Origin: Cyanophora paradoxa CCMP329
Taxonomy: Eukaryota; Plantae; Glaucophyta
DNA: 64,000 nucleotides
Direction of reading: 5' to 3'
Assembly: GCA_004431415.1 (NCBI GenBank)
Contig: QPMI01000262.1
Span: forward strand, 1-64,000
Position 1 is the stretch's first letter, and each line of letters begins with the position of its first letter. Positions 21,007 through 46,597 of the stretch are shown one piece after another. The notes beneath the pieces were generated by a model that worked only from the letters and a program-made list of their open reading frames with translations, ran no database searches and had not been told where the DNA came from. The translations under genes were made by a program, and so were the position numbers.

Positions 21007-21482
21007 AGCCTCTTGATCGGACTCTAGATTTAGTTCTTGTCAAGTTGCACGATTTCACTTAGCATGAGTCATGATCATGTGCATACTACTATAGGCAGGA
21101 GTTGGAGAGCCAATGAACTCGAAAGCTTAAGGGTCACCGGGTTGCAATTGGAAGAGATTTGGAATTTTCGAAGGCCCGGCCGCCGCCGAGACGCACTGAG
21201 TGATCCATGAAGGGGAACAATCGCGACGCACGACTCGGCGAACTAAGCTTGCACACTTAGGTTCCAAGTTCTACGGAATTCGAAGGGCTGCCATCATGGC
21301 ATGGGCCAAGAAGCTTTCATGAGCATAATTAAGCATGTCCTGAACGAGCCGCTGGGCAATTAATTAAGCTTAAGCTCTCATGAGCATGCATAGTTAGGTT
21401 CCAAGTTCTACGCGCGTACGGAAGGGCTGCCATCATGCATGATCTACGGAAACAGGCATATGCATGCATTATAATATATATA

Positions 21483-23177
21483 ATGAACGGAACAGGGACA
21501 CTGCAGTTGCACTGCCCCTGTTGGAGGGGAAGGACCTCTAACGGTTGGGCAGGAAAGCTCAGGTTAGCCGCTGACTCTGCAGCCGCTGATCATGAGCCGC
21601 TGAGCTGCCCGAATGCCTGTAATTGCAACTGGGACGGTCGGCCGGGCTCGCAATCGAGCTCGTGGGACCGGAAGAGGACAAGCAGGTCAATCAGTCTTCG
21701 ACTCGCCCCGCCCCCTGCTCGTGCAAGGTGGCCATGTGGTCTTATTCAACAAAGACAGCATCTCAGAGTCTGCAGGCTGCAGCAAATGCTCACTAGGCGT
21801 ATACCTGGAACAAGAAGCCGTGCGGGAATGGGACAATTTGCCCTGCGCGCCGCGCCGCCGCCCGCCGTGCCTCCCGGATCCGCCCCGATCGGCGAGCCGC
21901 GCCGCCGCCCGCCGCGCCTCAGGAGGGCCTCCGCCCCGCACGGCGAGCCGCGCCGCCGCCCGCCGCGCCTCCGCCCCGCCCGGCGAGCCGCGCCGCCGCC
22001 CGCCGCGCCACCGTCCCGCACGGAGAGCCGCGCCGCCGCCCGCCGCGCCTCAGGAGGGCCTCCGCCCCGCACGGCGAGCCGCGCCGCCGCCCGCCGCGCC
22101 TCCGCCCCGCCCGGCGAGCCGCGCCGCCGCCCGCCGCGCCACCGTCCCGCACGGAGAGCCGCGCCGCCGCCCGCCGCGCCTCCGCCCCGCCCGGCGAGCC
22201 GCGCCGCCGCCCGCCGCGCCTCCGCCCCGATCGGCGAGCCGCGCCGCCGCCCGCCGCGCCTCCGCCCGCCCGGCGAGCCGCGCCGCCGCCCGCCACGCCT
22301 CCGCCCCGCCCGACGAGCCGCGCCGCCGCCCGCCGCGCCTCCGCCCCGCCCGGCGAGCCGCGCCGCCGGCCGCGCCTGCTCCCCGTGCGGCGCGCCGGCG
22401 CCGCGCCGCCGCCCGCAGCGCCTCCGCCCCGCCCGGCGACCGCGCCGCGGCCCGCCGTCTGCTGCGGAGCGCGGCACAAATCGAATCTAGCTGTGCACCT
22501 TGCGCAAGAGGAGCTTTTCGACGACACGCGTCGGCTTCTGTGCGCGCCCGGCGCGAGATTGCCGGGCGGCGCGCGAGCGCACCTTTCGGCGCAAAAGTGT
22601 CGCATCTGCGGACGGCGGGCGCGGGGCAGTCAGAACCATCGGCGACGCGCACCGGAACGCGGCGGAGGCGTAGCGGGCGTCTTCTTCCTGCACTCTTTCA
22701 CGTTCCGGTACAAGATCGGCCCCGCGTTCCGGTGCAAGGCATGCGCAACTCGGCCCCGCGACCGCGACATCGTGTACCCAGCAATCGCCTGAAACTCTCA
22801 GGAGCGCTTTTTTTCGGCGCTCAGTACAACAGGTACTTGAGGCGGCCTAGCGGGCCACCCTGTGCCTCTCCGGTCTCGGCATGTATGACATGAATCGTCG
22901 GGCGTATCAGGCGCATTCAGGCGCACTTGGTCCGGTATATATACCGCCACTTGGTGAGGCGCTAGATCGCATTTTTCAAACATGTGTTATTGCTCATTCC
23001 TGGTCGACCCGACAGGACCCGGATCTCCCGGAACACGTCTCCGGACTCGTAGGGACATGCCTGGCTAGGATCCGGCGAGAAAACCCGGGTTTTGGGAGGT
23101 CGGGACATTTCATTTTGGCCTAGGGTGGACACCCGAACACCCCCAAGTGGTGGAAGGGGAAGGGGGTCCTTCCCCAA
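21483..23177 (-). mobile_element. Non-autonomous Helentron/HLE2 (DINE-1-like) element, copy B
   Basis: Same termini as copy A in reverse orientation, with a central ~40-bp GC-rich tandem array. Near-identical to copy C. Confidence 0.8.
21845..22450. repeat. ~40-bp GC-rich minisatellite inside element copy B
   Basis: Unit GGCGAGCCGCGCCGCCGCCCGCCGCGCCTCCGCCCCGCCC, with 50-bp variants carrying CAGGAGGGCC. Confidence 0.9.
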
Positions 23178-23188
23178 TTATGCATACT

Positions 23189-24753
23189 ATGAACGGAACA
23201 GGGACACTGCAGTTGCACTGCCCCTGTTGGAGGGGAAGGACCTCTAACGGTTGGGCAGGAAAGCTCAGGTTAGCCGCTGACTCTGCAGCCGCTGATCATG
23301 AGCCGCTGAGCTGCCCGAATGCCTGTAATTGCAACTGGGACGGTCGGCCGGGCTCGCAATCGAGCTCGTGGGACCGGAAGAGGACAAGCAGGTCAATCAG
23401 TCTTCGACTCGCCCCCGCCCCCTGCTCGTGCAAGGTGGCCATGTGGTCTTATTCAACAAAGACAGCATCTCAGAGTCTGCAGGCTGCAGCAAATGCTCAC
23501 TAGGCGTATACCTGGAACAAGAAGCCGTGCGGGAATGGGACAATTTGCCCTGCGCGCCGCGCCGCCGCCCGCCGTGCCTCCCGGATCCGCCCCGATCGGC
23601 GAGCCGCGCCGCCGCCCGCCGCGCCTCAGGAGGGCCTCCGCCCCGCACGGCGAGCCGCGCCGCCGCCCGCCGCGCCTCCGCCCCGCCCGGCGAGCCGCGC
23701 CGCCGCCCGCCGCGCCACCGCCCCGCACGGAGAGCCGCGCCGCCGCCCGCCGCGCCTCCGCCCCGCCCGGCGAGCCGCGCCGCCGCCCGCCGCGCCTCCG
23801 CCCCGATCGGCGAGCCGCGCCGCCGCCCGCCGCGCCTCCGCCCCGCCCGGCGAGCCGCGCCGCCGCCCGCCACGCCTCCGCCCCGCCCGACGAGCCGCGC
23901 CGCCGCCCGCCGCGCCTCCGCCCGCCCGGCGAGCCGCGCCGCCGGCCGCGCCTGCTCCCCGTGCGGCGCGCCGGCGCCGCGCCGCCGCCCGCAGCGCCTC
24001 CGCCCCGCCCGGCGACCGCGCCGCGGCCCGCCGTCTGCTGCGGAGCGCGGCACAAATCGAATCTAGCTGTGCACCTTGCGCAAGAGGAGCTTTTCGACGA
24101 CACGCGTCGGCTTCTGTGCGCGCCCGGCGCGAGATTGCCGGGCGGCGCGCGAGCGCACCTTTCGGCGCAAAAGTGTCGCATCTGCGGACGGCGGGCGCGG
24201 GGCAGTCAGAACCATCGGCGACGCGCACCGGAACGCGGCGGAGGCGTAGCGGGCGTCTTCTTCCTGCACTCTTTCACGTTCCGGTACAAGATCGGCCCCG
24301 CGTTCCGGTGCAAGGCATGCGCAACTCGGCCCCGCGACCGCGACATCGTGTACCCAGCAATCGCCTGAAACTCTCAGGAGCGCTTTTTTTCGGCGCTCAG
24401 TACAACAGGTACTTGAGGCGGCCTAGCGGGCCACCCTGTGCCTCTCCGGTCTCGGCATGTATGACATGAATCGTCGGGCGTATCAGGCGCATTCAGGCGC
24501 ACTTGGTCCGGTATATATACCGCCACTTGGTGAGGCGCTAGATCGCATTTTTCAAACATGTGTTATTGCTCATTCCTGGTCGACCCGACAGGACCCGGAT
24601 CTCCCGGAACACGTCTCCGGACTCGTAGGGACATGCCTGGCTAGGATCCGGCGAGAAAACCCGGGTTTTGGGAGGTCGGGACATTTCATTTTGGCCTAGG
24701 GTGGACACCCGAACACCCCCAAGTGGTGGAAGGGGAAGGGGGTCCTTCCCCAA
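23189..24753 (-). mobile_element. Non-autonomous Helentron/HLE2 element, copy C (head-to-tail with copy B)
   Basis: Near-identical to copy B, separated from it by 11 bp. It is 130 bp shorter, matching fewer minisatellite units. Confidence 0.8.
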
Positions 24754-25521
24754 TGATATAATGATGATATATGCCCTGATCGAGTCGCTCGGCCAAGAAG
24801 CTCGGCCGAGATCATGGGCAGCTGCAGCCTGCAGATTCCAGGCTCTCATGATCATGGATCATGAGCAGCTGCAGATCTAGAGATCTAGAGGGACTGCACG
24901 CATGGCAGGCTGCCGTCACGGCGTCCGGTCGGACCTCAATTCCTGCTTCTCATAACTCATAACGTTAACACTAAGTGAACAATGATCATCTAGCTATAGA
25001 AAAAGTGATTCGCTACGGCAATAAATAATGTAATTCTGAGTTCTGCATCTGTAGCTGTGACACTCAAATACAATAACAGCAATATACGCATGCCAGCTGC
25101 ACATGCAGGCTGATTCTAAGATAGCATTAGCTACAGCGATCCTCATGGCGCAGTGATCGTGATACTAATATATCATACATAAATATGAACAGCGACATCG
25201 ACGACACTTGATGAGTGAACGTCACGTGCACTATTTGAATTCTGATATGTCCGCAGAAATAGTCCTTTCTAGAAAGAGCGAAATGATGGGCCAAAAAGCA
25301 AAACGATATCGATCAGATAATGATCATGATCAGCGGCCGCGGCCGCGGTCGGCGCGGCCGGACCTCTCCTTTGCGGGTTGCCGGGGGGGGGGGGGGGGGG
25401 GGGGGGGGGAGGGGGGACCGACGGATCCGGAGGCCGCGGCCGGAGCTCGAGCCTCGGAGGGAATAAAAAGAGAAGTGCGGCGCGGGCCCGGGGCCGGCGG
25501 GGGAATACGTAGGATGGATAT

Positions 25522-31417: not shown

Positions 31418-31925
31418 TTGGGGAAGGACCCGATCGGGGCGGAGGCGCGGCGGGCGGCGGCGCGGCTCGCCGTGCGGGGCGGAGGCCCTCCTGAGGCGCG
31501 GCGGGCGGCGGCGCGGCTCGCCGATCGGGGCGGATCCGGGAGGCACGGCGGGTGGCGGCGCGGCGCGCAGGGCAAATTGTCCCATTCCCGCACGGCTTCT
31601 TGTTCCAGGTATACGCCTAGTGAGCATTTGCTGCAGCCTGCAGACTCTGAGATGCTGTCTTTGTTGAATAAGACCACATGGCCACCTTGCACGAGCAGGG
31701 GGCGGGGGCGAGTCGAAGACTGATTGACCTGCTTGTCCTCTTCCGGTCCCACGAGCTCGATTGCGAGCCCGGCCGACCGTCCCAGTTGCAATTACAGGCG
31801 TTCGGGCAGCTCAGCGGCCGCAGAGTCAGCGGCTAATTTTATAACCTGACCTTTCCTGCTCAACCGTTAGAGGTCCTTCCCCTCCAACAGGGGCAGTGCA
31901 ACTGCAGTGTCCCTGTTCCGTTCAT
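31418..31925 (+). mobile_element. Internally deleted Helentron/HLE2 element, copy D
   Basis: The 5' terminus TTGGGGAAGGACC joins directly to the minisatellite. The 3' part, subterminal IR and hairpin match copies B and C. Confidence 0.8.
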
Positions 31926-32274
31926 ATTGCACTGCGGCATGCGCAACTTGCAATCCGATCCGATATCGATCCGATATCGATGACCTGTACATGTTAAATA
32001 TGATTTGGGACTCTGATATATAGACATATATATTTCGTCAAAGGGAGGGCAAGATCTAGATTTTATAACCCACCAATTAACGGGCTGCAGCTGTTCAACT
32101 GTGAAGTCAAGATGATTTAGTGTTACACGTGCACGGTATCGATCGCGATCGCTGGACTCAGTGGATTCGCTGCACTTATCACAGTGTGTCATTTCGCAAT
32201 CTCATCGGATCATGATTCATGATCCGATGATCACCGGGATGTTTGTTTCAAGTTTGCAATGCCAATGACATGGC

Positions 32275-32449
32275 AAAAAAATGTAAATTGGGCATACTGC
32301 CCCACGAAATTATATATGGTAATAAAATCGAATAAACTTTAAACTTTTCGATATTCCACAAACGTTTCGACAAAACCAAATCAAAAACAAACCATTCACA
32401 GTAACCACACAAAACAAAACGTAAAATCTCAGTAAGCCTCAGTAACAAC
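32275..32449 (+). repeat. Left terminal inverted repeat of the virus
   Basis: AAAAAAATGTAAATTGGGCATACTGCCCC...CAGTAACAAC; reverse complement of 43468-43643. Confidence 0.97.
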
Positions 32450-32818
32450 TTAAAACCTCTCATTTTTTACTGTATTTTTTGAACGCTTTTTTACTGTATT
32501 TTCTACACTAGAAATGACGATAGAAACGACAATAAAAACAATAGAATTTAAATTGTTTTTTAATCGTATATATGTCAATATATCAATGTAGTATATATGA
32601 TATATATCATGTAAAATCGATTTATAGTCAAACCTATAACATATCGATTTGTGTATATGTGATATATATATATATGACGTCATAATGACGATACATATGT
32701 ATATGATATATATGACATACCACGTGACTCGGGAGATCATGACGATCACGGCGATGTGTTCATTATCATATGCATGACTTGGACCAATCAGCTATCGATG
32801 ACTCTTCTGTGGCTCACA

Positions 32819-33070
32819 GGTGGCTCATCGATAGATCAATGGGTCTTATCACATCATCGGTGGCTCATCGATAGATCAATAGGTCTTATCATATCATAGG
32901 TGGCTCATCGATGGATCAATGGGTCATACAACATTATCGATCTCGGATCGATAGATGAATGGTTCAATATTTTTCAATGGTTGAGTTTCGTAGTATATAC
33001 TCGTAGTATAAACTTGTAGTATAATTCCATAGTATAAATCCGTAGTATATACTCGTAGTTGATACTCGTC
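32819..33070. repeat. Tandem repeats in the viral non-coding left arm
   Basis: 40-bp unit GGTGGCTCATCGATAGATCAATGGGTCTTATCACATCATC starting at 32819, 32859 and 32899. It is followed by ~13-bp GTAGTATA-core repeats (32988-33070). Confidence 0.85.
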
Positions 33071-33301
33071 GTAGAAACCCCAGGAATAACTTGAACCGGG
33101 GTATATATTTGTTCGACATTTCGTCGAAATTTCGGTAAATCGATTATCGGCATCTTCAAACGCTTGTATCTCACCACCAGATGGTCAACTCGCAACGTTT
33201 TGCATAGCGTTTTGAAGCGCTTGTTAAGCTCTACACAACTACGTAATCATCGTATTATTTCAAGCTACCTTGTCATACAATATTTCTCACAAATCGTCCT
33301 T

Positions 33302-34060
33302 TCACACACTGATTGTGGTCATTTCTCGTTGGATCCGAGCCATCTGACCCCTTTTAATTGCTTTTCTCTTCACAAACTTCTTAAAGCCCTTCATATCATC
33401 ATCAGTTAGTACTGCTCTATCAGTATAGGTCTTGATATCATAACCTTGCAGGCTCGCTATGACAGTTTGATAATTATAGCCCCATAGTCTATGCAATTCC
33501 TTGTAGGTCTTCTTATCCATTCCACCATTGTACTCATCAAAGGCGCAATTGAACTCTTTTTCGTTCCCAAGAATATTGAAAAAGACTACGAACTCAACAT
33601 TTCGACGAATCGTAGTAGAAATAGAGCATAAACGCTGAACATTAAATATTACCGAGATTGAATAATGTCTTCCACTCGTGACCAATTTAGATAACACAGC
33701 CGAATTGTGCATATCCAAATTTGAACCTATCATGTCATCGAGTATGATGACTAGGTTATTTCGCTTTTCGTTATTCTCGATTCGTTTCTTTTGCATACTG
33801 ATCAATCTCAAAACAATGTTATCATCCCATTCCTCATAGATGTTATCGGGATGGGTGATGTCATTGAATTGCCCAGTAAAAGCTGTGGAACTAAATATTA
33901 CAATCTGATCTATCTTGTCACGAAGCTCGTAAAGTAAGTATTTTGTAAACATTGTCTTACCTGTATTGGAGCGACCAACATTTAAAATTCTCGTTGGGAT
34001 TCGAACTGTCTTACTCGGATCGAACTCCGGAATATCATCTAAGTTTACTGTGTTATCCAT
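33302..34060 (-). CDS. A32-like (FtsK/HerA) genome-packaging ATPase
   Basis: Walker A ILNVGRSNTGKT, Walker B VIILDD, and the A32 motifs SGRHYSIS and NVQ..STTIRRN. Confidence 0.95.
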   Translation of the reverse strand: MDNTVNLDDIPEFDPSKTVRIPTRILNVGRSNTGKTMFTKYLLYELRDKIDQIVIFSSTAFTGQFNDITHPDNIYEEWDDNIVLRLISMQKKRIENNEKRNNLVIILDDMIGSNLDMHNSAVLSKLVTSGRHYSISVIFNVQRLCSISTTIRRNVEFVVFFNILGNEKEFNCAFDEYNGGMDKKTYKELHRLWGYNYQTVIASLQGYDIKTYTDRAVLTDDDMKGFKKFVKRKAIKRGQMARIQREMTTISV

Positions 34061-34138
34061 TACAGTAATAAGATAAAAAACAAAATAAACCCTTACCTAC
34101 TAATTTTGCGCTTCCTACTCTAACGAAAGAAAAGAACT

Positions 34139-35364
34139 TTAGAAGTTCGAGACTTTCAGGGTAGAGATGTTGTAGCCATTTAGGACCATAACATTGTGTC
34201 GTAGGGCATAGATGTCAACCTGAACAGGAGCAGCATCAGTGCATCCCGAAACAGTGAGATCCATGTAACTCGAGCTGCTGTTGAAGAAATCCTGGTAACC
34301 CATAACCGAGTTCCGAAGCGAATCTTTTCCGGACTTGGAAAGAACAATTCCATAAACATTTCCAGACTCGAATCCGTACGTGGTATTGCCCACAGTAACA
34401 CCCTTGTAGTGAGAAGGAATGTGATTGACAGCAGAGAGGAAACCGGAAATGGGTTTGTTAGATATATCCAGGGAGCGATTGTTGTGGAAGATCTGGAACT
34501 GATCAATCTTAACAGCAGATTCATGACCGCAGAAATCCGAGTGAGTGTAGGTGTTAAGTTTGTTCACCTCTCGAACAGTCATCAGAATCGAGTGAACCAG
34601 ACCAGAAACATTAGCGAGTGTAACCTCAACAGATTCACCAGCATCAGCGGTTTTGAGCGCTCGGGTCTTCTTGTGAATGACCTCTGTGATCGGGATGCGA
34701 ATGCCACCTTGTTCGTTTGCCATTTTAAGGAGTGTCTCAGCCTCAGCCGAAGCAATGTTTACGAATTGGCAGATCAGAGAGCAATCCGCAAAGGTTACAG
34801 ATCCACCAGCCGGAACTTGGACAATCGCAGCATCACGGAAATCAACCTCGATTGTTGGCATATCGGCTAGCGTACATAATGGGAAATAAGCTTCTTCCCA
34901 GAAAGCAGCGGGATTCTAACGATGTATTCCATTGCTTCATCTGTGCTTTCACGATCTGTCTCTTTGAAGTAACCGAGAGAAGCATACATGCTGCTCATGG
35001 TAGCGTGATCATTATCGACCAGGGCGTTTACAGTGATCCAATCACCAGGGATAATATACTTGAAACCACCATGAACGAAACGGACCTCATTAATAAAAGA
35101 AGAACCACCATTGGGGAGGGTGCAGGCTACACCACCACCAGTGGCAATCTTGAAATAGAGCGAAACACCAGCAAGGAGTTGCTTGCGAGGTAGATCAAAG
35201 TAAGCCGTATTCTTGAAGCCAAAAGTGTTGCCTCGGGGACGAACTTGCTCGAGGAATGGTTTGTATTTGGGGTTGGTTCCGATTTGGAGACCAGGGGAAA
35301 GATAAATTTGATCGGAACCGGAAGTTACGAGGAGTTCCTTCAGGGTAGTTCCAGTGAGTGCCAT
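34139..35364 (-). CDS. Double jelly-roll major capsid protein (~408 aa; one frameshift near 34905)
   Basis: The two track ORFs join as ...YIVRIPL|FWEEAYFPLCTLADMPTIEVDF... Beta-rich sequence with motifs GSDQIYL, FDLPR, GDWI and IYALRHNV. Lies between the ATPase and the penton. Confidence 0.85.
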
Positions 35365-35416
35365 CTCTTATGTTTAAAATACCAAAAGAAATTTTTAAAA
35401 TGCTTTATTAAACAGA
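35365..35416. promoter_or_regulatory. Putative bidirectional AT-rich promoter between MCP and penton
   Basis: 52-bp AT-rich spacer between divergent ATGs. Function is inferred from the arrangement only. Confidence 0.45.
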
Positions 35417-36304
35417 ATGACGCGTTACTATCTCAATATTGATTCCAGGGACCGATCGGATGGAACCCCAACTAATTTCACATACAGACTCCCTTATGCA
35501 ATCCAAAAGGTCAGAGCCTGTCGAGTAACGAACTTTGAGATGTTTCACAATCTTTACAACCTCTCTGAAGTAGGAACCCTCACCACACAAACACTCGATA
35601 ATGCTGGGAACCCAAAGAATAGAAACAACGAAGTCCTCCGAGGTGCATATACACCGGATTCACTGGTGAATTATCTGATCGCTCGCATTGGATCCCAGCC
35701 CTATAATCAAGCGGGTGGCGGAACTTACACTCGCCATTTCTATGTAACCTATGATCCCACAACATTGCTTCTAAGGTTCATGTGTGAGGTTCCATTCTCA
35801 ATCACTATGAACACTCAACTCTTAGCCAATTTCTGTGGTTTTGAAAATGCTAACACACTGTACCAATCGAGTCCTCTATCATCTAATGTCACAGTTGGAG
35901 CCTTTACTTATGCTCACTACATTGATAGTGAAATGCCATTAGATCTACTATTTAATTCCTATTTGCTTCTTCATGTTGATCCACTGAAAGGAAGATATGT
36001 GAGCAATAACAAACGAGATAACAATGCTATCGCGAAAATTGAGATTGACCAAACGGTTGGCAGTCTATTAAAATATGATTCATCGAATAATTCCATGATC
36101 GTTCACGAGCAGAATGGCTTGGTTGAGGTTGAGACTCTAGATGTGAGACTTTCTTACTGGAATGGAGCCACAGCAGACATTACTACCGACTGGTCGATGA
36201 CTCTTGAACTGATTACTGAAGATGATAAAGATCTGACGAAAAAAGCATTGAAGAATGTCATAAAAGAGTTGGAGGGACTCTACCTGCCGTTCTCACGGTC
36301 ATAG
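35417..36304 (+). CDS. Minor capsid protein (penton, single jelly roll)
   Basis: N-terminal YLNIDSRDR...PTNFTYRLP and C-terminal LDVRLSYWNG...DWSMTLEL, typical of PLV/NCLDV pentons. Confidence 0.88.
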   Translation: MTRYYLNIDSRDRSDGTPTNFTYRLPYAIQKVRACRVTNFEMFHNLYNLSEVGTLTTQTLDNAGNPKNRNNEVLRGAYTPDSLVNYLIARIGSQPYNQAGGGTYTRHFYVTYDPTTLLLRFMCEVPFSITMNTQLLANFCGFENANTLYQSSPLSSNVTVGAFTYAHYIDSEMPLDLLFNSYLLLHVDPLKGRYVSNNKRDNNAIAKIEIDQTVGSLLKYDSSNNSMIVHEQNGLVEVETLDVRLSYWNGATADITTDWSMTLELITEDDKDLTKKALKNVIKELEGLYLPFSRS

Positions 36305-36340
36305 GAAATACTGTAGAATAAATTTGTTTCAATATTACAA

Positions 36341-37101
36341 ATGGCTCGCAAGACTCAACCCAAGAATTTCTTAGCCAAACCAGCCGCTGAAGCGGATGTT
36401 GGCAATGGTGAGAATGGAAGGAACTGGTATAAGAAATCGAAAGGACTCGCTGCATACGGAACTGGTGACCTCGAAAAGGAAGTCCATAAAGAACGAAACC
36501 AATTCACCCAAGCCACTACGAAAAACAGTAATGATGATAATGCCCTTGTTGACCAAGTCCCACTGAACCGCATGCCCGGAGCCAAACGAGGAATCAAGAA
36601 AGGACAGTTCAAATCATCCACAAAGGACAAGGTTGCATCATCATCGACACTGCTGAAACTGCTTGATGGTGGTGAGCGACTCTACTCAACCTATTCGAGA
36701 AAGACCATCGCAACCGCTACTTTATTCGTTCAACCACTGGTGGACTGAAATCTGTAACATATCAGTATGCTAAGAGTCTTGTTGATGGTATTGCAGCAGA
36801 GACCAAAAACGAAAACAAGATCAAGGAACAGCCAATCACAAAGGAAAAGGTTGAGAAGAAACCAGAAGTAACCCATGAAGTTATTCCCGAACCTGTTCAT
36901 GTGGCAAAAGACTCACCTACAGAATTGATTGCAAAGACCATTGAGTATCAAGACTCCAACAAAACGGATTTGCCGGTTCTCAATAAGTCGATCCTTCGGG
37001 TTGCCACTTCACAGGCTGATCCAGTCAACTCGATTCCAAATGCTGCCCCAATGGTCTCTGGATTCGCCAAGCTTGGTATAAGACCCGGTTATCGCCGTTA
37101 A
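36341..37101 (+). CDS. Viral hypothetical protein (~253 aa; frameshift near 36675)
   Basis: ORF 36341 continues in another frame as ATLLNLFEKDHRNRYFIRSTTGGLKSV... into ORF 36901-37101. Basic N-terminus. Confidence 0.65.
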
Positions 37102-37452
37102 GGATCAATCTGAATAATATAATTTCTCAAACATTGTTAGCGCTACGTAACCAATCCTATCCCGTAGGCTCAAAACTTCTTCATTTTTATGGAGGCGTTG
37201 TAGAGCGAAGTGAAATATCCATAGGTAAATCACTTTAATCACCTGTTCTACCGGGTTCAGTGGTAGAAACTTGCAGCCGACAAGTGAACCTTCTGGTATC
37301 GGTAGCTTTATCATTTTTCCAGCATCTTCTTTTGTACTGGATGCTCTGCAATCGGGACCAAAATTGATTGGGTTCTCACAAAGAATATATACACGACATA
37401 AAAACTACTTAAAGATTTCTTAACATATATTAAGAGAGTAGAAAGGACAAGA

Positions 37453-37806
37453 ATGACGATCACAGAAGCCCAAAAGAAAGCAACTTACCGCTACCGTAAA
37501 ACAGAAAAGGGTATGTTAGCGCTTGCTAGGATTAATGAGAAACGCAATGCAAAATGGAACGAACTCTACAACAATGATGAAGAATTCAGACAAGCTCACA
37601 TAATGACTTCATGCAAGGCTCAATATGTAAATAACACCATTCTCTATGTAAAGTATCTATTTGACGTTCCTCGTACCAACCGCGGACGTCCATCAAGTAT
37701 GTTAATGCTTGTTAATCGTTTTCTCAGCGCGATTGCTCTGAGAACCCGCGGAAACCGCGCTGGAAGCAAAACTATAAATCTTTCTGTTATTTTTAGAGTT
37801 CGATGA
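37453..37806 (+). CDS. Small basic viral hypothetical protein
   Basis: MTITEAQKKATYRYRKTEKG; ATG follows an AT-rich spacer. The 3' end is uncertain. Confidence 0.6.
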   Translation: MTITEAQKKATYRYRKTEKGMLALARINEKRNAKWNELYNNDEEFRQAHIMTSCKAQYVNNTILYVKYLFDVPRTNRGRPSSMLMLVNRFLSAIALRTRGNRAGSKTINLSVIFRVR

Positions 37807-37945
37807 TCGAGCCAACCCTTTGTTATTTTTATAAATGCCTCGACTGAATTTATTTTGTTGGAGACTTTTGGTTTTGCCGGTAAAATTTGACGCGAGTATA
37901 AAATGACTTAAGGAAATAAAATATAGAGTATATATAAAAGTGAAA

Positions 37946-40900
37946 ATGCCTCGCGCAGTAAGTATTCAGAATGCTAGAAAGAGACAAGGAATGCTAGCAA
38001 AGCTTGGTTACCTTCTTGGTGCCGGAATCATAAATGAAGAGCAATTTAACGCATTGGGTTACTTTGCCTTCATTAAGAGACTTCGATCTGCTGGTCTGAA
38101 GGACATAAGCGATACAATTGATGGTATTATTGCCAGGGGTGAGGGCAGACTGAATGAGCAGGATGAAATCGAGAGATTTGGTAACATTGAGGTTATTGAA
38201 GGTGGAAATAAGAAGACCAAAGCAGAGCGGATCGCTGAAAAACGAGACAAGAGAGCTGAAAGGAAGCAGCAGAAGAAGCAGAAGAAAGCAGGGAGAACCG
38301 CTAAGAATGTTGAGAAGCAGAAGGTTAGAGAAAGAATAGCAAAGGAGGCAAAACAGCAGAGAGAGGATGAGAAGAAGCAACGAGAGGAGGCAGAGGTGAT
38401 GCAGGCTATGAATAGTCTTGTAAGTGAGGTCACTTGGAGGAACCAGACCAAAGATAACATCGCTTCTGCCCATGAGTTTATTGATAGGGTTGTTCGTTGG
38501 GATCCCTTTTACAATCGTTTTCGAGATGCTCTTCGTAACAGACGAGGTATTAAGTATAACCTCTACAGCATGGCGAGATATGTGAAAGTGGCAACTGGAG
38601 AAATAAGAACCATGCAATGGACCACCCCATTCTACCTTCTTGTCAATGATCAAGAGATTGTTGATACTGTTGATGAATCAATTGATGCATTGCAGGAGGT
38701 TCTCACTTCACCTGATAGTTGGAAGCTAGAAAACATCTTAACAGTTCGCTTGCAGATTCTTACTTATCAGCCACTCGCAGGTAGCTCCTATATTGACCTC
38801 CCACCAGGAATAAAAAAGCGTAAAGCTGTGATTAATCCACAGAACAAAGATAATAAATGTTTCGCATGGGCGGTAACTATTGGACTACATCAACATGAGC
38901 TATCTCATAAACACCGATATGATGTAAAGCGATACAAGAAGTATGAGAATGAGTTCAATTGGAATAAGTTTGAGTTCCCATTCAAGAATGATCCTCGTCA
39001 GTACGAACGAGCATCAAAATGATTGGTCGACCAATCAATGTGTATATGGTCGATCGATCACATATCGTTCCAGTCCATATCTGTAAGGACCCATCCCAAC
39101 AACATCTTACAATTGACATTCTTCTGTGGACTGTCAACGAAAAAACCCACTATGGTTACATTTCTAGCATGTCAAGGTTAATATCGAATTCACACCATGG
39201 AACTCGCCATTTCTGTAAAGCTTGTTTGAGAGGGTTCACCAGTGAAACGGTATTGGAGAGACACATTAAACACAACAAGTGTTACGATCGACCAAATGCA
39301 ACAGTTGACACAATGCCACCAAGCGGATCTAAGACCAAGTGGGACCCAAAGAGACATGTTGACAAGACTGTATGGCATCCAATGTTTGTTGTTGCTGACT
39401 TCGAATGTATATTGCAAAAGGTGGATGAGACACGAGGTGAAAACACTGCAGTCTACCAGAAGCACATTCCAAGTGGATACAAAATCATGGTTATCCACAA
39501 CGAAGAGATTATAAAACAGGTATTGTATCGGAAGGAGAACCCAGAAAATGATGATGAGGTTACACAGCACTTTATGGAGACACTGAAAACGATTGAATCC
39601 GATTTACTTGAGAAGCTTAGACATGTTGCACCAATGGTTATGGAACAATGGCACAAAGAGGATTACAGAGATTCTGTTGCTTGCTACATCTGCGGAGATG
39701 AGTTTGGAGCTACTATAACTGATGACAATGGTAACACATATCAAGTTAAAAAGGTTAGAGACCACGATCACATTACAGGAGATTACCTTGGAGCAGCTTG
39801 CAATACTTGCAATCTGAAACGAAAGATCAATCCAAAGATCCCAGTTGTGTTCCACAATCTAAAAGGTTACGATGGACACTACATTCTGAAGGCTTTGAAT
39901 TTCAATGAACCTGGTAAGGAAATTCGTTGCATTGCCCAGAATTTTGAGAAGTTCATAGCATTCGATATGGGACCATACAAGTTCATGGACTCTTTGAATT
40001 TCATGGCTTCGAGCCTTGATGGTCTGGTAAAGAATCTCAGTAAGAATAATTTCAAATTCACCAATGAGTGGTGTGATTCTGTAAATTACTCACAGGAACA
40101 GCGAGAGCTACTGATGCAAAAGGGACACTTCCTTACGACTACCTGGATAGCTTCGAGAAACTCAGTGAGACCCAATTACCTCCCAAAGAAGCTTTCTACT
40201 CGAAACTCAATGATACTGAATTAAGTGACTCCGACTACAAGCATTGCCAGAGGGTATGGGACGCTTTCAACTGCAAAACTCTCGGAGATTATCACGATAT
40301 CTATCTTTCTACTGATGTTGCTCTGCTTGCTGACGTTTTCAATACATTCCGCAATGTTTGCTACAGTAATTATAAGATCGATCCTATCCATTTCATTTCA
40401 GCTCCTCACCTGTCATGGTTCGCGATGTTGAAATATACAGGTGTGGAGTTGGAGCAATTGAGTGACCCTGAAATGTATAGATTCTTTGAACTTGGAATTC
40501 GTGGAGGTGTTTGCATGGTTCCCAATCGTTATGCAGAGGCTAATAACCCCTACATGAAGTCTTATGATCCATCAAAGTCAACAAAGTATATCACCACTTG
40601 GGATGCCAACAATCTGTATGGGAAAGCGATGAGTTTCAAGCTACCCAGAGGTGGATTTGAGTGGATTGATGACATCGAGAATTTCGATTATATGGGCTTT
40701 GATGTGGAAGGTGATAGAGGTGCAACTTTGGAGGTTGACTTGGAATATCCAGAACACCTACATGATCTTCACAGTGATTTACCTCTTGCTCCCGAATCTC
40801 TAATAATCACCAAGTCAATGATTTCACCAACACAGCTTGAAATGATTGGTGATGAAAAACTACCCCAGACTCGTAAGTTGGTTCCCAATCTGATGAACAA

Positions 40901-41968
40901 GACCAATTACATCCTACACATCAAAAACTTGCAGTACTACATCTCAAAAGGATTGAAGGTAACAAAGGTTCATCGTGGATTATGTATGATCAATCTGAGT
41001 GGCTGAGACCATACATCGATTTCAATACCGGACTGCGGACGCAAGCTCGTAATGATTTCGAGAAAGATTTCTACAAACTCATGAATAACTCAGTTTTCGG
41101 AAAGACCATGGAGAACGTTCGCAAGCGAAGTAACATAAAGCTTTGCAACGATCCAGGGTGCAGCTCAAACACAACGGCAATCCATTGTTGAAGACAGTGA
41201 AGATTATCAATGAGAATCTTACTGCTTTAGAGTTCTATAAGGGTTCTATTATGTTGGATAAACCCATTTATGTTGGTCAGGCTATCTTGGATCTGTCCAA
41301 ACTAATCATGTATCGTTTCCATTACGATTACATCATGGTGAAGTATGGACCTGGATCAGCCAAGCTGCTCATGACTGATACAGATTCCCTGTATTATCTG
41401 ATTGAGACTGACGATATCTACAAAGACATGATTGAGGATTCTCATTGGTTTGATCAGTCTGATTACAGCAAATCCCACATCTGTTACAACCCTAAAAATA
41501 AAAAGGTTCCCGGTTTGTTCAAGGATGATTGTGGTGATTATCTCGTTACAAGGTTTGCTGGTTACAAACCAAAGCATACTCCTACGAGAAGGAGTTGAAT
41601 GTTAAGGCTCTGGGATCAGAAGAAAATGTAAAACAGGTGATTGCTGACAAGTTGAAGGATTTGTTAAGAGTGAAGTCGAATGCTACGGAAGCTGATGTTA
41701 TTGATAGTAAGGTTAAGAAGTTGAAGGGAGTTCAGCGGTCAGTAGTGCAGAATAGGTTAGAGTTCCTACAATTCTACAACACTGTCATGTATCCAATGAA
41801 GGAGCGGAGAAAGTAACAGTTCGAGGTTTCCGATCAAAGAACCACGAGGTAACAACGCAGGAAATGAAGAAAAGGGCATTCAATGCGCTCGATACTAAGA
41901 GGTATCTTTGTGAGGACCTCTATACTACTCTTGCGATTGGACACTATAAAACAAAAACAACACTATAA
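37946..41968 (+). CDS. polB: Protein-primed family B DNA polymerase (Maverick/Polinton type) with vOTU-like, C2H2 and EndoVII-like domains; six frameshifts
   Basis: [35 protein letters not shown], ExoI VADFEC, CYICG..RDHDH..CNTCN, Exo[20 protein letters not shown], Exo[57 protein letters not shown]. Confidence 0.96.
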
Positions 41969-41973
41969 TAAGG

Positions 41974-43032
41974 ATGGACCAGGTTCTGAGTTATACCAAG
42001 TATCGACAGAAATTGATTAAAGAAGGTATCACATTTGATGAGGAAGAACTAAGAAAGCGTTTTAAAAATCAAGAGCTTGAGCAGATCTTTAAGAAGCCCA
42101 AAAAGCAAAAGTCTTTCTTGCGGATCATTGCTCCACCCAATTCCTTTCAGGTTGATGTGATTTATTTCAAAAGCTACAAGACAGCAACACATGGAGTGGA
42201 TAGGATGCTGGGATTTGTCGATATATTGAGTCGGAAAGCATTTGTATACCCTTTCAAGCCAAAGGATTCGAAAATCGATATTTTCAACAGGTTCAAAGTT
42301 GAGGCAGGCAAGGTTAGTGCTATCTCAGGAGACAATGAGTTCTCTGCTGAGATTTATAGGAAATGGTGTGAGGAAAACAATGTTACACTCTACACTGATG
42401 TAGCTAAGAATGACCACATCACAGTAGGTGATAAACTTGGTATTATCGATAGGTTCACCAGAACTTTTAAACAATATTTGAGAAAAGCAATAGTTTCGAG
42501 TGGGAACCCAAAATGGACTGATTATTACAAACAGGTTCTGGCAACTTACAACAACAGTCCACACACTTCCCTAAAGAATGATTCACCCAATGCAGTGTAT
42601 GGGAATAACGAGAAAGAATCGTTCATATATTTGCGTGATGCATTGCATAACAAACGTATTAAAGAAGGTAGCCCAACAGTAAAGGAGGGAGATTATGTTC
42701 GAGCTGTAACTGAAAAGAAGACTTTCGATAAAGAAGGAGCAAGATACAGCAAACAAGTGTATAAAGTAGCAGGCAAGGTAGGTAATCGATTTAGTTTATT
42801 GGAAGAGAATGAGGGAGAGAGTCCAAAGGAAGTAAAACGAAACTTTAAACTGAACGAGTTGCAAAAAGTAGATAAGGCAGCAATTGTTAAGATTCCCACA
42901 CAGAAGCGTGTGGAGCGAGTGAAAAAAACAACGAAGGTAAATAGATTAGTAGCAAAAGAGGGTATCAAGCCCAATAGGAGCAAAGTAGTTAGGAAGAGGT
43001 ATAATTTACGAAGCGGGTTGACTAGACGTTAG
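41974..43032 (+). CDS. Retroviral-like (rve) integrase
   Basis: FQVDVIYF, VDILSRKAFVYP, ISGDNEF, GIIDRFTRTFK, YNNSPHTSL..SP and an SH3-like GDYVR..FDKE..YSKQVY. Consistent with the 6-bp TSD. Confidence 0.94.
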   Translation: MDQVLSYTKYRQKLIKEGITFDEEELRKRFKNQELEQIFKKPKKQKSFLRIIAPPNSFQVDVIYFKSYKTATHGVDRMLGFVDILSRKAFVYPFKPKDSKIDIFNRFKVEAGKVSAISGDNEFSAEIYRKWCEENNVTLYTDVAKNDHITVGDKLGIIDRFTRTFKQYLRKAIVSSGNPKWTDYYKQVLATYNNSPHTSLKNDSPNAVYGNNEKESFIYLRDALHNKRIKEGSPTVKEGDYVRAVTEKKTFDKEGARYSKQVYKVAGKVGNRFSLLEENEGESPKEVKRNFKLNELQKVDKAAIVKIPTQKRVERVKKTTKVNRLVAKEGIKPNRSKVVRKRYNLRSGLTRR

Positions 43033-43310
43033 GCTGTGAGGTATGAACCATCTTTCGATTCAACAATTTTCGTGATAGGTCTGAACACTTTGAAAATTTC
43101 TTTATAATGGATTCCTTTAACATACCAACCCTTATGAATTGGGTCCCATCTGAGACCATAAGATTTCGCTAATTGGATGTCTTTGAAAGCAACTTGACAA
43201 AACATTTTAACATTAATGTATTTGATTTCGTCTTCTGTTAGTTTTCGGAATTCTTTGAAGATCTCACTGTTTTCATCTTCAACAAACCATAGCTTCTTTT
43301 CAAAATCCAT
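43029..43310 (-). CDS. Small viral protein with DUF5710-like domain
   Basis: VAFKDIQLAKSYGLRWDPIHKGWYV fits the AK.GA.WD...K.WY pattern. The N-terminus (MDFEKKLWFV) looks like a partial second copy. Confidence 0.7.
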   Translation of the reverse strand: MDFEKKLWFVEDENSEIFKEFRKLTEDEIKYINVKMFCQVAFKDIQLAKSYGLRWDPIHKGWYVKGIHYKEIFKVFRPITKIVESKDGSYLTA

Positions 43311-43467
43311 TTTGCTCCTTTTGATTTCACGGATTCGCGATCATCATATCGAGAGAAAATGTAAAAGCGTTGTTGTGGCTTGGTTTCCATTTTTATTCAG
43401 ATTATCAGATTATTTTTATATGAAACAATCAATGAGGAATAACCGAGATTATGATATAACATCGATT

Positions 43468-43643
43468 GTTGTTACTGAGGCTTACTGAGATTTTACGTTT
43501 TGTTTTGTGTGGTTACTGTGAATGGTTTGTTTTTGATTTGGTTTTGTCGAAACGTTTGTGGAATATCGAAAAGTTTAAAGTTTATTCGATTTTATTACCA
43601 TATATAATTTCGTGGGGCAGTATGCCCAATTTACATTTTTTTT
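43468..43643 (-). repeat. Right terminal inverted repeat of the virus
   Basis: Matches the left TIR by eye, except terminal T8 versus A7. Confidence 0.97.
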
Positions 43644-43950
43644 CATGGCCCAGTGGCTACGGGAGAAAAAGTTGGCGGGGGCTCTGCATGCAATCTCTAA
43701 CTTCGGACTCCGGGAATGGCCTGGGCGGGGCCGGCGGTCCCAGCACTGCGCATGCGGGCCGGCCGGGCAGGGACCGGGCGACGGGCGGGGGCGCCGTGCG
43801 CCGTGGGCCGTGGCCCCTGGCCATGGGGCCCGGTGGAGGCGACGGAATGCAGATCATCGGATCGCTAGCTGATAAATGAGATCGATCATCATCATGCCAT
43901 GGCATGATGGGAGCCTCGATTGCAAGGCTTGTGATGACGATGCGAGATTG

Positions 43951-46597
43951 CTAGCGGCCAAGGAGGGAGACCTGGGGGCGGGGGCGGGCGTTGGGGGCAG
44001 GAGTCGAGGGGCGCGGGGCGCTGAGAGACGGGGCGGGGAGCTGCGAGGGGGCGCTGCGGACCTTGCCGAGGTCGGCGGCGATGCGCCAGCCGCACGCGAA
44101 GCCGGAGAAGGCGACGGCGTTGAGGCCCTGGCCGGGGAAGGTGCTGCGGTGGGCCCGCGTGAGGCGCGCCCGGCGCGGGGCGGGGCGGGGCGGGGCGGGG
44201 CGGGGCGGGGCGGGCCTGTCTCCGACGCAGTAGAGGTTGGGGATCGGGGTGCGGTTGAAGGGCATCCCCAGGAGGCCCGGCAGCACCTTCGACGGGATCG
44301 GCCCGTACGTCCCGTCCGCCCGCCCCAGGTACCGCCGGTGCGTGCGCGGGGAGCCGACCTGCCGGCGAGGCTCGGGGGCGGGGCGCGGGGCGCGGGGCGC
44401 GGGGCGCGGGGCGCGGGGCGGGCCTCCTTGAACTCGACGGCGGCGCCGAGGCCCGGGAGGACGCGCTCCAGGCGGGCGATCAGCCGCCCGCGAACTCCTC
44501 CTTCGCCCGCTCGTACTCCGCCGGGCCCAGGCCCTGCGCACCCGCCCGCCCCCGGTCACCCCGCCCGCGCCGCGCTGCGCCGGGGTGCGGGGCGGGGCGG
44601 GGCGGGACGGGGCGCGCTGGAAGTCGTCGATGGAGGCGGGGGCGAAGGCGTGGACGATGTGGCGGCCCGGGGGCGCGAGGGAGGGGTCGAGGAGGGTGGG
44701 GATGGAGACGAAGAGCGTGCCGGTGCCGTCCGTGGCCTCCAGGCGCGCCCAGTCCTCCAGGAGGATGTGGTGGCACTCCGTCCCCGCGGGCAGCGCCTCC
44801 GCCCGCACCCCCAGGTGCATCGACAGGAAGCTCGGGCTCTTCTCGTACCGGCCCCGCCACCTGCCCCCCGCGCCCCGCCCCCGAGCCTCGGCATCCGGCG
44901 CCGCACGGCGGGGCCGGGCCGGGCGGGGCGGGGCGGACCACTTCTCGGTGATGGGCGTGCGCTCCTCGGGCAGCAGCTTCCCGAACGTGTCCCACCTGCG
45001 CCGCCCCCGCCCCCGCCTTCACACGCCGCACAGAGGCGCGCCCCGGGCCGCCCCGGCGCACCGCGTGGCGTTCGAGACGATGCGCTTCCCGCGGAACGTC
45101 CGCCCGTCCGCCGTCTCGACGCCTGCGGCCGCCCCCGCCGCGTCGTCGCGCTGAGGCGGGGGCGGGGCGGGGGCGGGGGCGGGGGCGGACCGACGGCGGC
45201 GCCGGCCTCGGTGAGGATGCGGGTGGCGCGGGAGCGGTAGCGGAGGCGGCCGAGGCCGGTCGCCTCGATGCCGCGGGCGAGCTTGGCGGCGATCTGGCCG
45301 ACGCCGCCGCGCGGGTAGTTGATGCCGCCGAAGTGGCGGTCGGAGAAGACCATGCCGGCGTTGATCATGGGGGTGCGCTCGGCGGGGACGACGCTCCAGC
45401 AGTAGCACTCCATGTCGATGAAGCGGAGCAGCTCCTCGTCGCGGATGTGCTTGCGGGCGATGGCGCCGACGTTGAGGGGCAGGTACTTGACGAGGCCGAG
45501 GCAGGCGAGCGGGTGCTCGAAGAAGACCCGCGCCAGGTACCGCGGCTCCTCCAGCGACAGCAGGTCCATCGCGTTCAGGCAGTTGAACACCGCCCAGCAC
45601 TCGTCGTAGAACGCCCGGATCCCCGCCGCTGCCCGACGGTTCGGCGCCGAGGGCGGGGCGGGCGGGGCGGGGCGGGGCGCGCCTTCGTGGGGGAAGCGGG
45701 CGGAGAGCTCCGCGATGAACTTCTCGTAGTCCCGGTGCACCTGCCGCCCCTCACTCAGCGTTGGCGGCCGGCGCTGGGCGCTGGGCGGGGGGCCGGGCGC
45801 CTGGATGTCGAGGTCGTTGGGGAGGTGGTAGTCGATCTGCACGGGGTCCGGGATCGTCTCGATCTTCTCCCCCACCTGTGCACGCCCCGCTCGCTCACGG
45901 CCCGGGCGGCGCGCGGGGCGGGGCCGGGGGCGCACGAGGGCGAGGGCGCGGGTGAGGAGGTTCGTGGTGCCCTTGTCTCCGAACCCGAAGATCATCGAGG
46001 CGCCAACATCGAACGTGTAACCGTCCCGTTCGAAGTACGCCGAGCTCCCCCCGGGCACCACGTAGCTGGCCGATTGGGCGGTGTCGGCGCGCGGCGGGGA
46101 CAGCGGGGGCGGGGGGCATCACCTCTCGAGCACGAGCGTCTTCAGGCCCTTGGCGACGGTTTGGGCCGCTGTCGTGAGCCCGCCGATGCCGGAGCCGATC
46201 ACAATCACGTCCCAGCCGTCGGACTCCACATCCTCAGCAGCGCTCGCGGCGGGGGATTCCGTAGCGAGCGCAGCGGAGGTGAAAGCCGGGCCTGCGGAAG
46301 CGCACGCCGTGCAGGTCAGCCCCGCGCTGTCGGCCCTGAGCACGCGCACGGGCCGCCGAGGAGATTCTTGCACGCGCGCTCACCCTGGAAGGAGCGGGGA
46401 GCCCGCTTCCTGCTGGCAGCCAGCCTATTGGCATGAGCGAGTCCTTCGAACGACCGGAACTGCTGAGCGCGCCGCGCGCCGGGCTGGGCGATGCTCGCCC
46501 TGTGAACGCCGCTCGGGCCTTGAGCGCACCGCGCAGACGTTTCCTGCACCGCCGCGCGTGCGGGGGCCACGACGGGGGGCGCTACTGCGAAGGCCAT
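43951..46597 (-). CDS. CRTISO: Carotenoid (prolycopene) isomerase, plastid-targeted, multi-exon
   Basis: MAF transit peptide. VIVIGSGIGGL, FDVGASMIFGFGDKGTTNLLTRAL, FIDMECYCWS, TPMINAGMVFSDRHFGGINYPRGGVG, GLLGMPFN, STFPGQGLNAVAFSG. Confidence 0.96.

Follow-up and report, generated by a model that had tools for sequence, protein, structure and literature searches.

The low-GC island in the window (about 40% GC, against roughly 60–80% across most of the 64,000-nt stretch of Cyanophora paradoxa DNA that constitutes it) is the site of what is probably an intact and recently integrated endogenous PLV of 11.4 kb, in which a Maverick-type pPolB and an rve integrase are combined with an orphan capsid module of PLV/NCLDV type. 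For the giant-virus-like motifs of the MCP we prefer an interpretation as ancestral traits kept from a capsid family common to Polintons, PLVs and NCLDV over the capture of a giant-virus module.

The element spans positions 32275–43643 (11,369 nt), and an identical 6-bp CATGGC flanks it on both sides (Table 1). With a double-jelly-roll MCP, a minor capsid protein and an A32 ATPase on an element in the 10–45 kb range, it is a PLV in the broad sense; terminal inverted repeats and a 6-bp target duplication alongside rve mark it as integrated, and pPolB and rve integrase, the pair that characterizes Maverick/Polinton group 1, are both present. A 6-bp duplication is expected with rve integration according to the available text of Bulzu et al. 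(2025; PMC12220804). No second copy of the element was found in the window by tblastn.

Table 1. Features of the endogenous element and its boundaries (window coordinates).
Feature	Position	Strand	Details
Left target-site duplication	32269–32274		CATGGC
Left terminal inverted repeat	32275–32449	+	175 nt; arms 100% complementary
A32-like packaging ATPase	33302–34060	-	252 aa, intact; Pfam Pox_A32 E 1e-15, above cut-off
Double-jelly-roll MCP	34139–35364	-	about 408 aa; one frame break near 34909
Penton / minor capsid protein	35417–36304	+	295 aa, intact; giant-virus penton profile
Basic lysine-rich ORF	36341–37101	+	split near 36695; extra base in short-read contigs
Small ORF	37105–37404	-	indels relative to short-read contigs
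Small ORF	37453–37806	+	indels relative to short-read contigs
pPolB	37946–41968	+	about 1340 aa, in seven frames; Pfam DNA_pol_B_2; motifs
rve-type integrase	41974–43032	+	352 aa, intact, without chromodomain; phmmer to L142 integrase
Small DUF5710 protein	43029–43310	-	Pfam DUF5710 E 4.7e-08
Right terminal inverted repeat	43468–43643	-	one T longer than left arm; 175-nt perfect part 43468–43642
Right target-site duplication	43644–43649		CATGGC

All ORFs of at least 45 aa in the element were listed, and gene absences were judged by Pfam and PHROG scans of these ORFs. The basic ORF has no match in Pfam or PHROG, and the two small ORFs that follow it have no significant family match in the same scans. 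Among the element ORFs scanned, Pfam finds no adenain-like cysteine protease, three small ORFs being without assignment, and the Pfam and PHROG scans together find no VLTF2, VLTF3, HUH endonuclease, RuvC-like resolvase or helicase/helicase-primase. At 32700–33100, past the left inverted end and before the ATPase gene, lie short direct repeats beginning GGTGGCTCATCGAT and GTAGTATA; about 370 nt of this region are skipped by contigs in some copies. Outside the element, 21300–24900 and 31430–31926 hold members of a repeat family built of 40-nt GC-rich units, in the form of a tandem pair plus an inverted partial copy. The inverted copy (389 nt, 99%) lies shortly before the left end of the element; a match to 2495–2876 is found in another arm, and the whole looks like a non-autonomous transposon family. 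Beside the right end of the element, an intron-split host gene on the minus strand (43900–46400), without a match in a single-frame Pfam scan, is one that we take, from its motifs, to be a carotenoid isomerase (CRTISO-like).

A preliminary description of this DNA had read the MCP across a single frameshift and likened it to the capsid proteins of giant viruses. The frameshift is confirmed: two minus-strand ORFs (35364–34867 and 34915–34139) overlap at the break. So are most of the motifs, as these ORFs contain, in collinear order, LLVTSGSDQIYL, FGFKNTAYFDLPRKQLL, FINEVRFVHGG..IPGDW, YFPL and VDIYALRHNVMVLNG. The remaining motif, IPL.FW, owes part of its form to the break: the in-frame reading with the extra base of the short-read contigs gives IPAAFW, as in a near-identical published protein, and leaves the L out of frame.

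The likeness was measured against an NCLDV MCP profile. One motif served to choose 128 IMG/VR loci, whose 66 distinct full-length MCPs make up the profile, so that it is biased to bearers of that motif. The controls were the MCPs of one canonical Maverick (L131) and of one PLV from a metagenome whose replicase is an SF1 helicase (L144), and a giant-virus contig supplied a divergent MCP paralogue (L150) as a third comparison; a search for further Maverick and PLV control MCPs yielded nothing new. The PLV, seen also as L145, is 15–19 kb long (MCP, penton, ATPase, SF1 helicase), and one of its copies is binned as a giant-virus MAG in IMG/VR.

Six motif cores at the places given in the preliminary description, which were chosen by eye and hence favourable, were reached by 0, 1, 1, 0, 5 and 0 of 100 shuffles. 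In an unconstrained ungapped test only the C-terminal motif stands out at its own place (0 of 200 shuffles); the N-terminal motif was reached by 42 of 200 shuffles, and two other motifs did not fall at their places. A chain of 12 cores, half of them from the preliminary description, falls on the same places with a z of 8.4 (3.7 for the Maverick, 1.1 for the PLV and 6.5 for the paralogue), and the six cores that had not been named before sum to 23.4 in the element MCP, 28.2 in the Maverick and 16.1 in the PLV. Chains of blocks chosen by conservation gave z values of 3.8, 6.5, 7.3 and 4.5 for the element, reached by none of 100 shuffles in any of the four settings, as against 1.0–2.3 for the Maverick, 1.3–2.6 for the PLV and 0.7–6.6 for the paralogue. 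The motif chain of the element MCP thus lies above both controls in every setting and equals or exceeds that of the paralogue.

On the whole profile, the element MCP gains no better score than the Maverick MCP does. The element MCP scores 6.5 bits on the whole NCLDV HMM (best of 200 shuffles 1.5; about 1e-4 as a single comparison), against 10.1 bits for the Maverick and 11.6 for the paralogue, the PLV not being listed; local hhalign scores are 30.8 (probability 9.8%), 36.2 for the Maverick, 57.4 for the paralogue and 14.4 for the PLV. Neither Pfam Capsid_NCLDV nor Capsid_N matches the element MCP at E 0.1. In the ESM Atlas, the 30 matches of the C-terminal half comprise 20 Capsid_NCLDV clusters (0.96–0.98), the best at 0.98 with 212 shared features, and 10 unnamed ones, and the recognition of this half is 1690, below the 2300 mark; for the PLV control, 13 of 30 matches, counted over named clusters, are Capsid_NCLDV (0.95–0.96), and the same NCLDV cluster is reached at 0.95 with 191 features. 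A single-sequence fold of the C-terminal half failed, at a pLDDT of 33.8, and one guided by 23 NCLDV segments came to no more than 55.7. Foldseek leads from the guided fold to NCLDV MCPs (best E 3.6e-05 in the PDB and 2.1e-07 in BFVD, TM 0.33–0.45), matches that we do not count as NCLDV affinity because the guiding alignment was made of NCLDV proteins. A homologue search with the C-terminal half was blank, the N-terminal half had four matches among 1.84 billion representatives, all of them short repeated stretches in longer proteins, and a sequence search of the PDB gave nothing below E 0.25. On this home-made test with few controls, the parallels between the MCP and those of NCLDV appear real and lean slightly more to NCLDV than do the two controls, the motifs being seemingly somewhat better kept in the element.

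NCLDV best hits are common among the MCPs of Polintons and PLVs. The C. paradoxa MCP family is catalogued (gene_49165) in Table S2 of Bellas et al. (2023; PMC10120064), and the element MCP differs from the catalogued protein at 8 of about 299 residues (about 97% identity, by eye). This match, together with the GC-rich surroundings, also points to C. paradoxa as the host. In the available parts of that table, the catalogued MCP has an ascovirus MCP as its best HHpred match (97.2%, E 1.8e-6), and all six Cyanophora rows have an NCLDV best hit; so do 29 of the 35 other Polinton/PLV rows with a named hit in three parts of the table, the rest being divided between PRD1 (three) and Sputnik (three). 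Four of those 29 rows have better E-values than the C. paradoxa MCP, and a Bathycoccus PLV MCP matches PBCV-1 at E 4.4e-15, against 1.8e-6. The accessible text also states that Polinton/PLV MCPs other than those of Gosseviruses are most similar to NCLDV capsids. A special giant-virus nature of the MCP, as first proposed, is therefore not upheld, an NCLDV best hit being usual for such proteins. By eye, comparable motifs (YGD, YxPL, IPAxF) recur in endogenous MCPs from Acanthamoeba, Reticulomyxa, Vitrella, Paulinella and Digenea, so that MCP features of this kind may be spread across a broad range of protist elements.

The penton ORF begins MTRYYLNIDSRDRS, the start that had been likened to NCLDV pentons. 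Against a profile of six giant-virus pentons it scores 23.0 bits in an end-to-end alignment (0 of 200 shuffles) and 14.9 bits with the motif region taken out of the profile, which, to judge from these alignments, makes the protein truly homologous to giant-virus pentons from end to end. The penton of the PLV control scores 39.5 bits on the same profile (29.7 without the motif region), and Maverick PX has no score against it. Among seven reference ATPases, that of the element scores 52.0 bits to the PLV, 46.6–50.8 bits to four NCLDV and 32.7 bits to the Maverick type; by eye, it shares with the aligned NCLDV ATPases an FD motif ahead of Walker A as well as GR..TGK. The MCP halves and the penton have no phmmer match under E 1.5 to PY or PX of the Maverick, a single full-length reference. 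These penton and ATPase score patterns place the capsid module, as far as sequence comparison goes, with the PLV/NCLDV type and not with Mavericks, and give it no special nearness to NCLDV: the PLV penton fits the giant-virus profile better, and the ATPase is, in pairwise scores, equidistant from PLV and NCLDV. Since no MCP, penton or ATPase relatives were found in the collections searched, the module appears to be an orphan PLV lineage. Of the chimera that the preliminary description envisaged, what stands is a Maverick-type pPolB and rve integrase beside a non-Maverick capsid module with an MCP that leans to NCLDV beyond the two controls; a special tie to Nucleocytoviricota is possible but unlikely.

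An alternative is that the capsid module belongs to the NCLDV-related branch of small viruses (the side of Mriyavirus, Zora, Zephyr, VC40 and GKS2), or forms a further deep offshoot within it, and has been combined with a pPolB–integrase pair of Maverick type. The element would then be the chimera of the preliminary description, and an endogenous member of that branch with a known host link. We consider this possible but unlikely. The collinearity of NCLDV motifs from the N- to the C-terminus (z 3.8–8.4, against 1.0–3.7 for the controls), the lean of the ESM Atlas matches to Capsid_NCLDV clusters, the NCLDV best hits in every Cyanophora row, and a penton homologous to those of giant viruses, as Maverick PX is not, would all suit such an origin, and groups of this kind carry rve and, in Zephyr, pPolB, according to the available text of Bellas and Sommaruga (2026; bioRxiv 10.64898/2026.06.19.733378). 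However, the same text reports NCLDV HMM matches at E 3e-25 for VC40 MCPs, whereas the element MCP reaches about 1e-4 and has no Pfam capsid match; VLTF2/3, HUH, RuvC and helicase were not found in the element ORFs; and neither penton nor ATPase comes closer to NCLDV than its PLV counterpart does. By eye, moreover, three sister MCPs from Cyanophora in the published table do not preserve the N-terminal GSDQIYL, and IPAAFW is closer to the IPASFW, IPASFL and IPACFL seen in elements from Reticulomyxa, Digenea and Acanthamoeba than to YIPLxFWF.

A more specific proposal, which we entertain only tentatively and think rather unlikely, is a glaucophyte-specific integrating lineage with an NCLDV-side capsid module, a size of 11.4 kb, a full Maverick-type pPolB–integrase pair, no NCLDV transcription genes and many intact copies. 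If true, it would be an NCLDV-side lineage smaller than any described NCLDV-related virus, and a living stand-in, in a cultured alga, for the transition from polintons to giant viruses, inducible and with a virion that could be solved. More generally, should the capsid module branch with NCLDV, the element would give this branch, for which metagenomes are the main source, a member that is tied to a host and can be cultured (the available text of Bellas and Sommaruga (2026) reports no endogenous Zephyr members), and it would carry exactly the pPolB–integrase pair that origin scenarios assign to the ancestor of giant viruses. Should it branch elsewhere, the element would still represent an orphan PLV lineage and a possible case of one capsid module with several replication modules in one genome.

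The replication and integration genes are of Maverick type, and both had been correctly recognized in the preliminary description. The pPolB carries a putative vOTU Cys/His, Exo I–III and Pol A–C (the TP-vOTU architecture of pPolB is treated in the accessible part of PMC11071308). Its core is 38–55% identical to most of 14 metagenomic pPolBs, five of which are adjoined by a related integrase, and 48% identical to that of the canonical Maverick, whose gene content includes rve with a chromodomain, PX, PY and an adenain-like ORF; a pPolB search of IMG/VR was blank. The integrase matches that of contig L142, which has Pfam rve, with a phmmer E of 3.5e-20, its own Pfam rve match being at E 0.2 only. 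At its third catalytic position it has D where four aligned relatives have E (IDRF versus IERF/VERW/AERF), and since the short-read contigs show no alternative letter there, we take the D to be a family trait. Three low-GC metagenomic contigs (L136, L139 and L142) have the pPolB-then-integrase order of the element and its closest integrases (28–30%), likewise without a chromodomain; they are too short to reach capsid genes.

It is very improbable that the element is itself a canonical Maverick (Polintoviricetes) whose capsid module evolves fast. The pPolB, the rve integrase, the inverted ends and the 6-bp duplication are classical Polinton hallmarks, and Alpha-adintovirus-like relatives are noted in Cyanophora in the available text of Starrett et al. 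(2021; PMC8502044), but neither the cysteine protease nor a chromodomain was found, the capsid proteins lack a match to PY or PX under the same E of 1.5, the ATPase is farthest from the Maverick-type ATPase, and the Cyanophora clusters stand outside the Maverick-Polinton columns in the available tables of Bellas et al. (2023).

Among the runs listed, 20 contain the element wholly or partly, all under one organism label, and two whose RNA nature is guessed cover parts of it, including an inverted end. We compared the right half of the element with contigs of four short-read runs. The window sequence of the element contains at least 11 frame breaks; the frames of the ATPase, penton and integrase are open, without in-frame stops. 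Six pPolB breaks are single missing bases, each present at full depth in the contigs of all four runs, and runs X1 and X4 each have a single contig with an extra base at the MCP break, at 42–46% of depth, the other two runs being without cover. Ten of the 11 indel places checked fall at runs of two to four equal bases; indels at short homopolymer runs are the pattern of long-read error. The frame breaks are thus likely assembly errors. Because the short-read contigs carry the missing bases, and at homopolymer-type places, the viral family is likely intact, from which we infer the same for this particular copy.

The contigs also bear on copy state. Contig depth, which by the tool's own warning does not equal copy number, is about 8–14 times that of the host flank over pPolB and about 16–21 times over the inverted end; in run X4 it is 2574 and 2876 over the penton and the MCP break, against 855–1084 over pPolB (about 2.5–3-fold). 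Contigs depart from the window sequence at the start of pPolB (divergence at 37944–38071), and from the same element terminus contigs continue into other flanks. Because depth over the capsid module exceeds that over pPolB and contigs diverge at the pPolB start, the contigs hint at a family of several copies in which other genes, too, adjoin the capsid module, and in this genome the module appears to be shared with elements having neighbours other than pPolB. The shared stretch may be 33300–37950, with neighbours different from the pPolB–integrase part at 37950–43400. We give scarcely any credence to the view that the element is a fossil in decay, or that it arose in assembly as a contaminant or collapsed consensus, instead of being an intact integrated copy: the frame breaks, a right-junction contig with 27 letters on the element side, below the 31 required to count as bridging, and the known problem of collapsed consensus in such elements (accessible text of PMC10120064) would favour it, but they are met by perfect inverted ends with an exact target duplication, by three uninterrupted genes, by the restoration of every pPolB break in short-read contigs and by the contigs that enter other flanks from the same terminus.

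Read as an intact integrated PLV, the element would have a life cycle predictable from its protein families. The rve integrase would have joined the ends of the linear genome to host DNA, generating the 6-bp duplication; once the genome is released, protein priming at its inverted ends would let pPolB copy it; and MCP trimers, with pentons at the vertices, would form an icosahedral shell into which the A32 ATPase packages the DNA. For transcription, an RNA polymerase of the host or of a helper virus would be needed, because the element encodes none.

The preliminary description suggested an undescribed lineage, a claim that prior work overtakes, since the MCP family is catalogued and publications already cover PLV-sized viruses that combine NCLDV-related capsids with rve or pPolB, replicase swapping being reportedly common. 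The available tables of Bellas et al. (2023, Tables S2 and S4) count 366 Cyanophora MCP hits in two unnamed clusters of 272 and 94; Cyanophora does not occur in the main text of that paper. The available text of Bellas and Sommaruga (2026) describes groups of PLV size that have NCLDV-related capsid modules and in some cases rve or pPolB, proposes them as links to Nucleocytoviricota and reports frequent replicase switching; Cyanophora is absent from its main text as available. According to the accessible text of Barth et al. (2026; bioRxiv 10.64898/2026.10.13.758929), pPolB keeps with DDE integrases but moves between capsid types, and the available text of Bulzu et al. (2025) includes Cyanophora PLVs without placing them. 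A literature search, with most subscription papers and preprint supplements outside its reach, found no paper describing or placing the Cyanophora elements. The MCP family and the concept of mixed modules are therefore already known.

The known systems closest to the element include the Cyanophora MCP clusters of Bellas et al. (2023), with which it shares the near-identical MCP (about 97% over 299 residues) and apparently many copies per genome; in the available tables, those clusters are unnamed and neither placed nor described as whole elements. Zoravirus VC102/VC134/VC218, Zephyrvirus, VC40 and Alpenseevirus GKS2 are likewise PLV-sized, with NCLDV-related MCP, penton and ATPase, rve integrase being common in Zora and VC218 and pPolB being among the Zephyr replicases; these groups, as the available text of bioRxiv 10.64898/2026.06.19.733378 presents them, are 15–30 kb, often have Mriya48, HUH or VLTF3 and are mostly metagenomic, whereas the element is 11.4 kb and endogenous, with HUH and VLTF3 not detected, and its MCP is weakly detected by NCLDV HMMs where those of VC40 are strongly so. 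Mriyaviruses and NCLDV-like dwarf elements resemble it in a small genome with NCLDV-like morphogenetic genes but, in the available text of PMC11253617, mriyaviruses are 35–45 kb, with HUH endonuclease, VLTF2/3, RuvC and helicase and no integrase. [quoted passage not shown] With Maverick/Polinton group 1 and Alpha adintoviruses, finally, the element has in common a pPolB with a putative vOTU, an adjoining rve integrase, inverted ends and a 6-bp duplication; it differs from group 1 in its smaller size, in that adenain protease and chromodomain were not found, and in capsid proteins that are not of PY/PX type.
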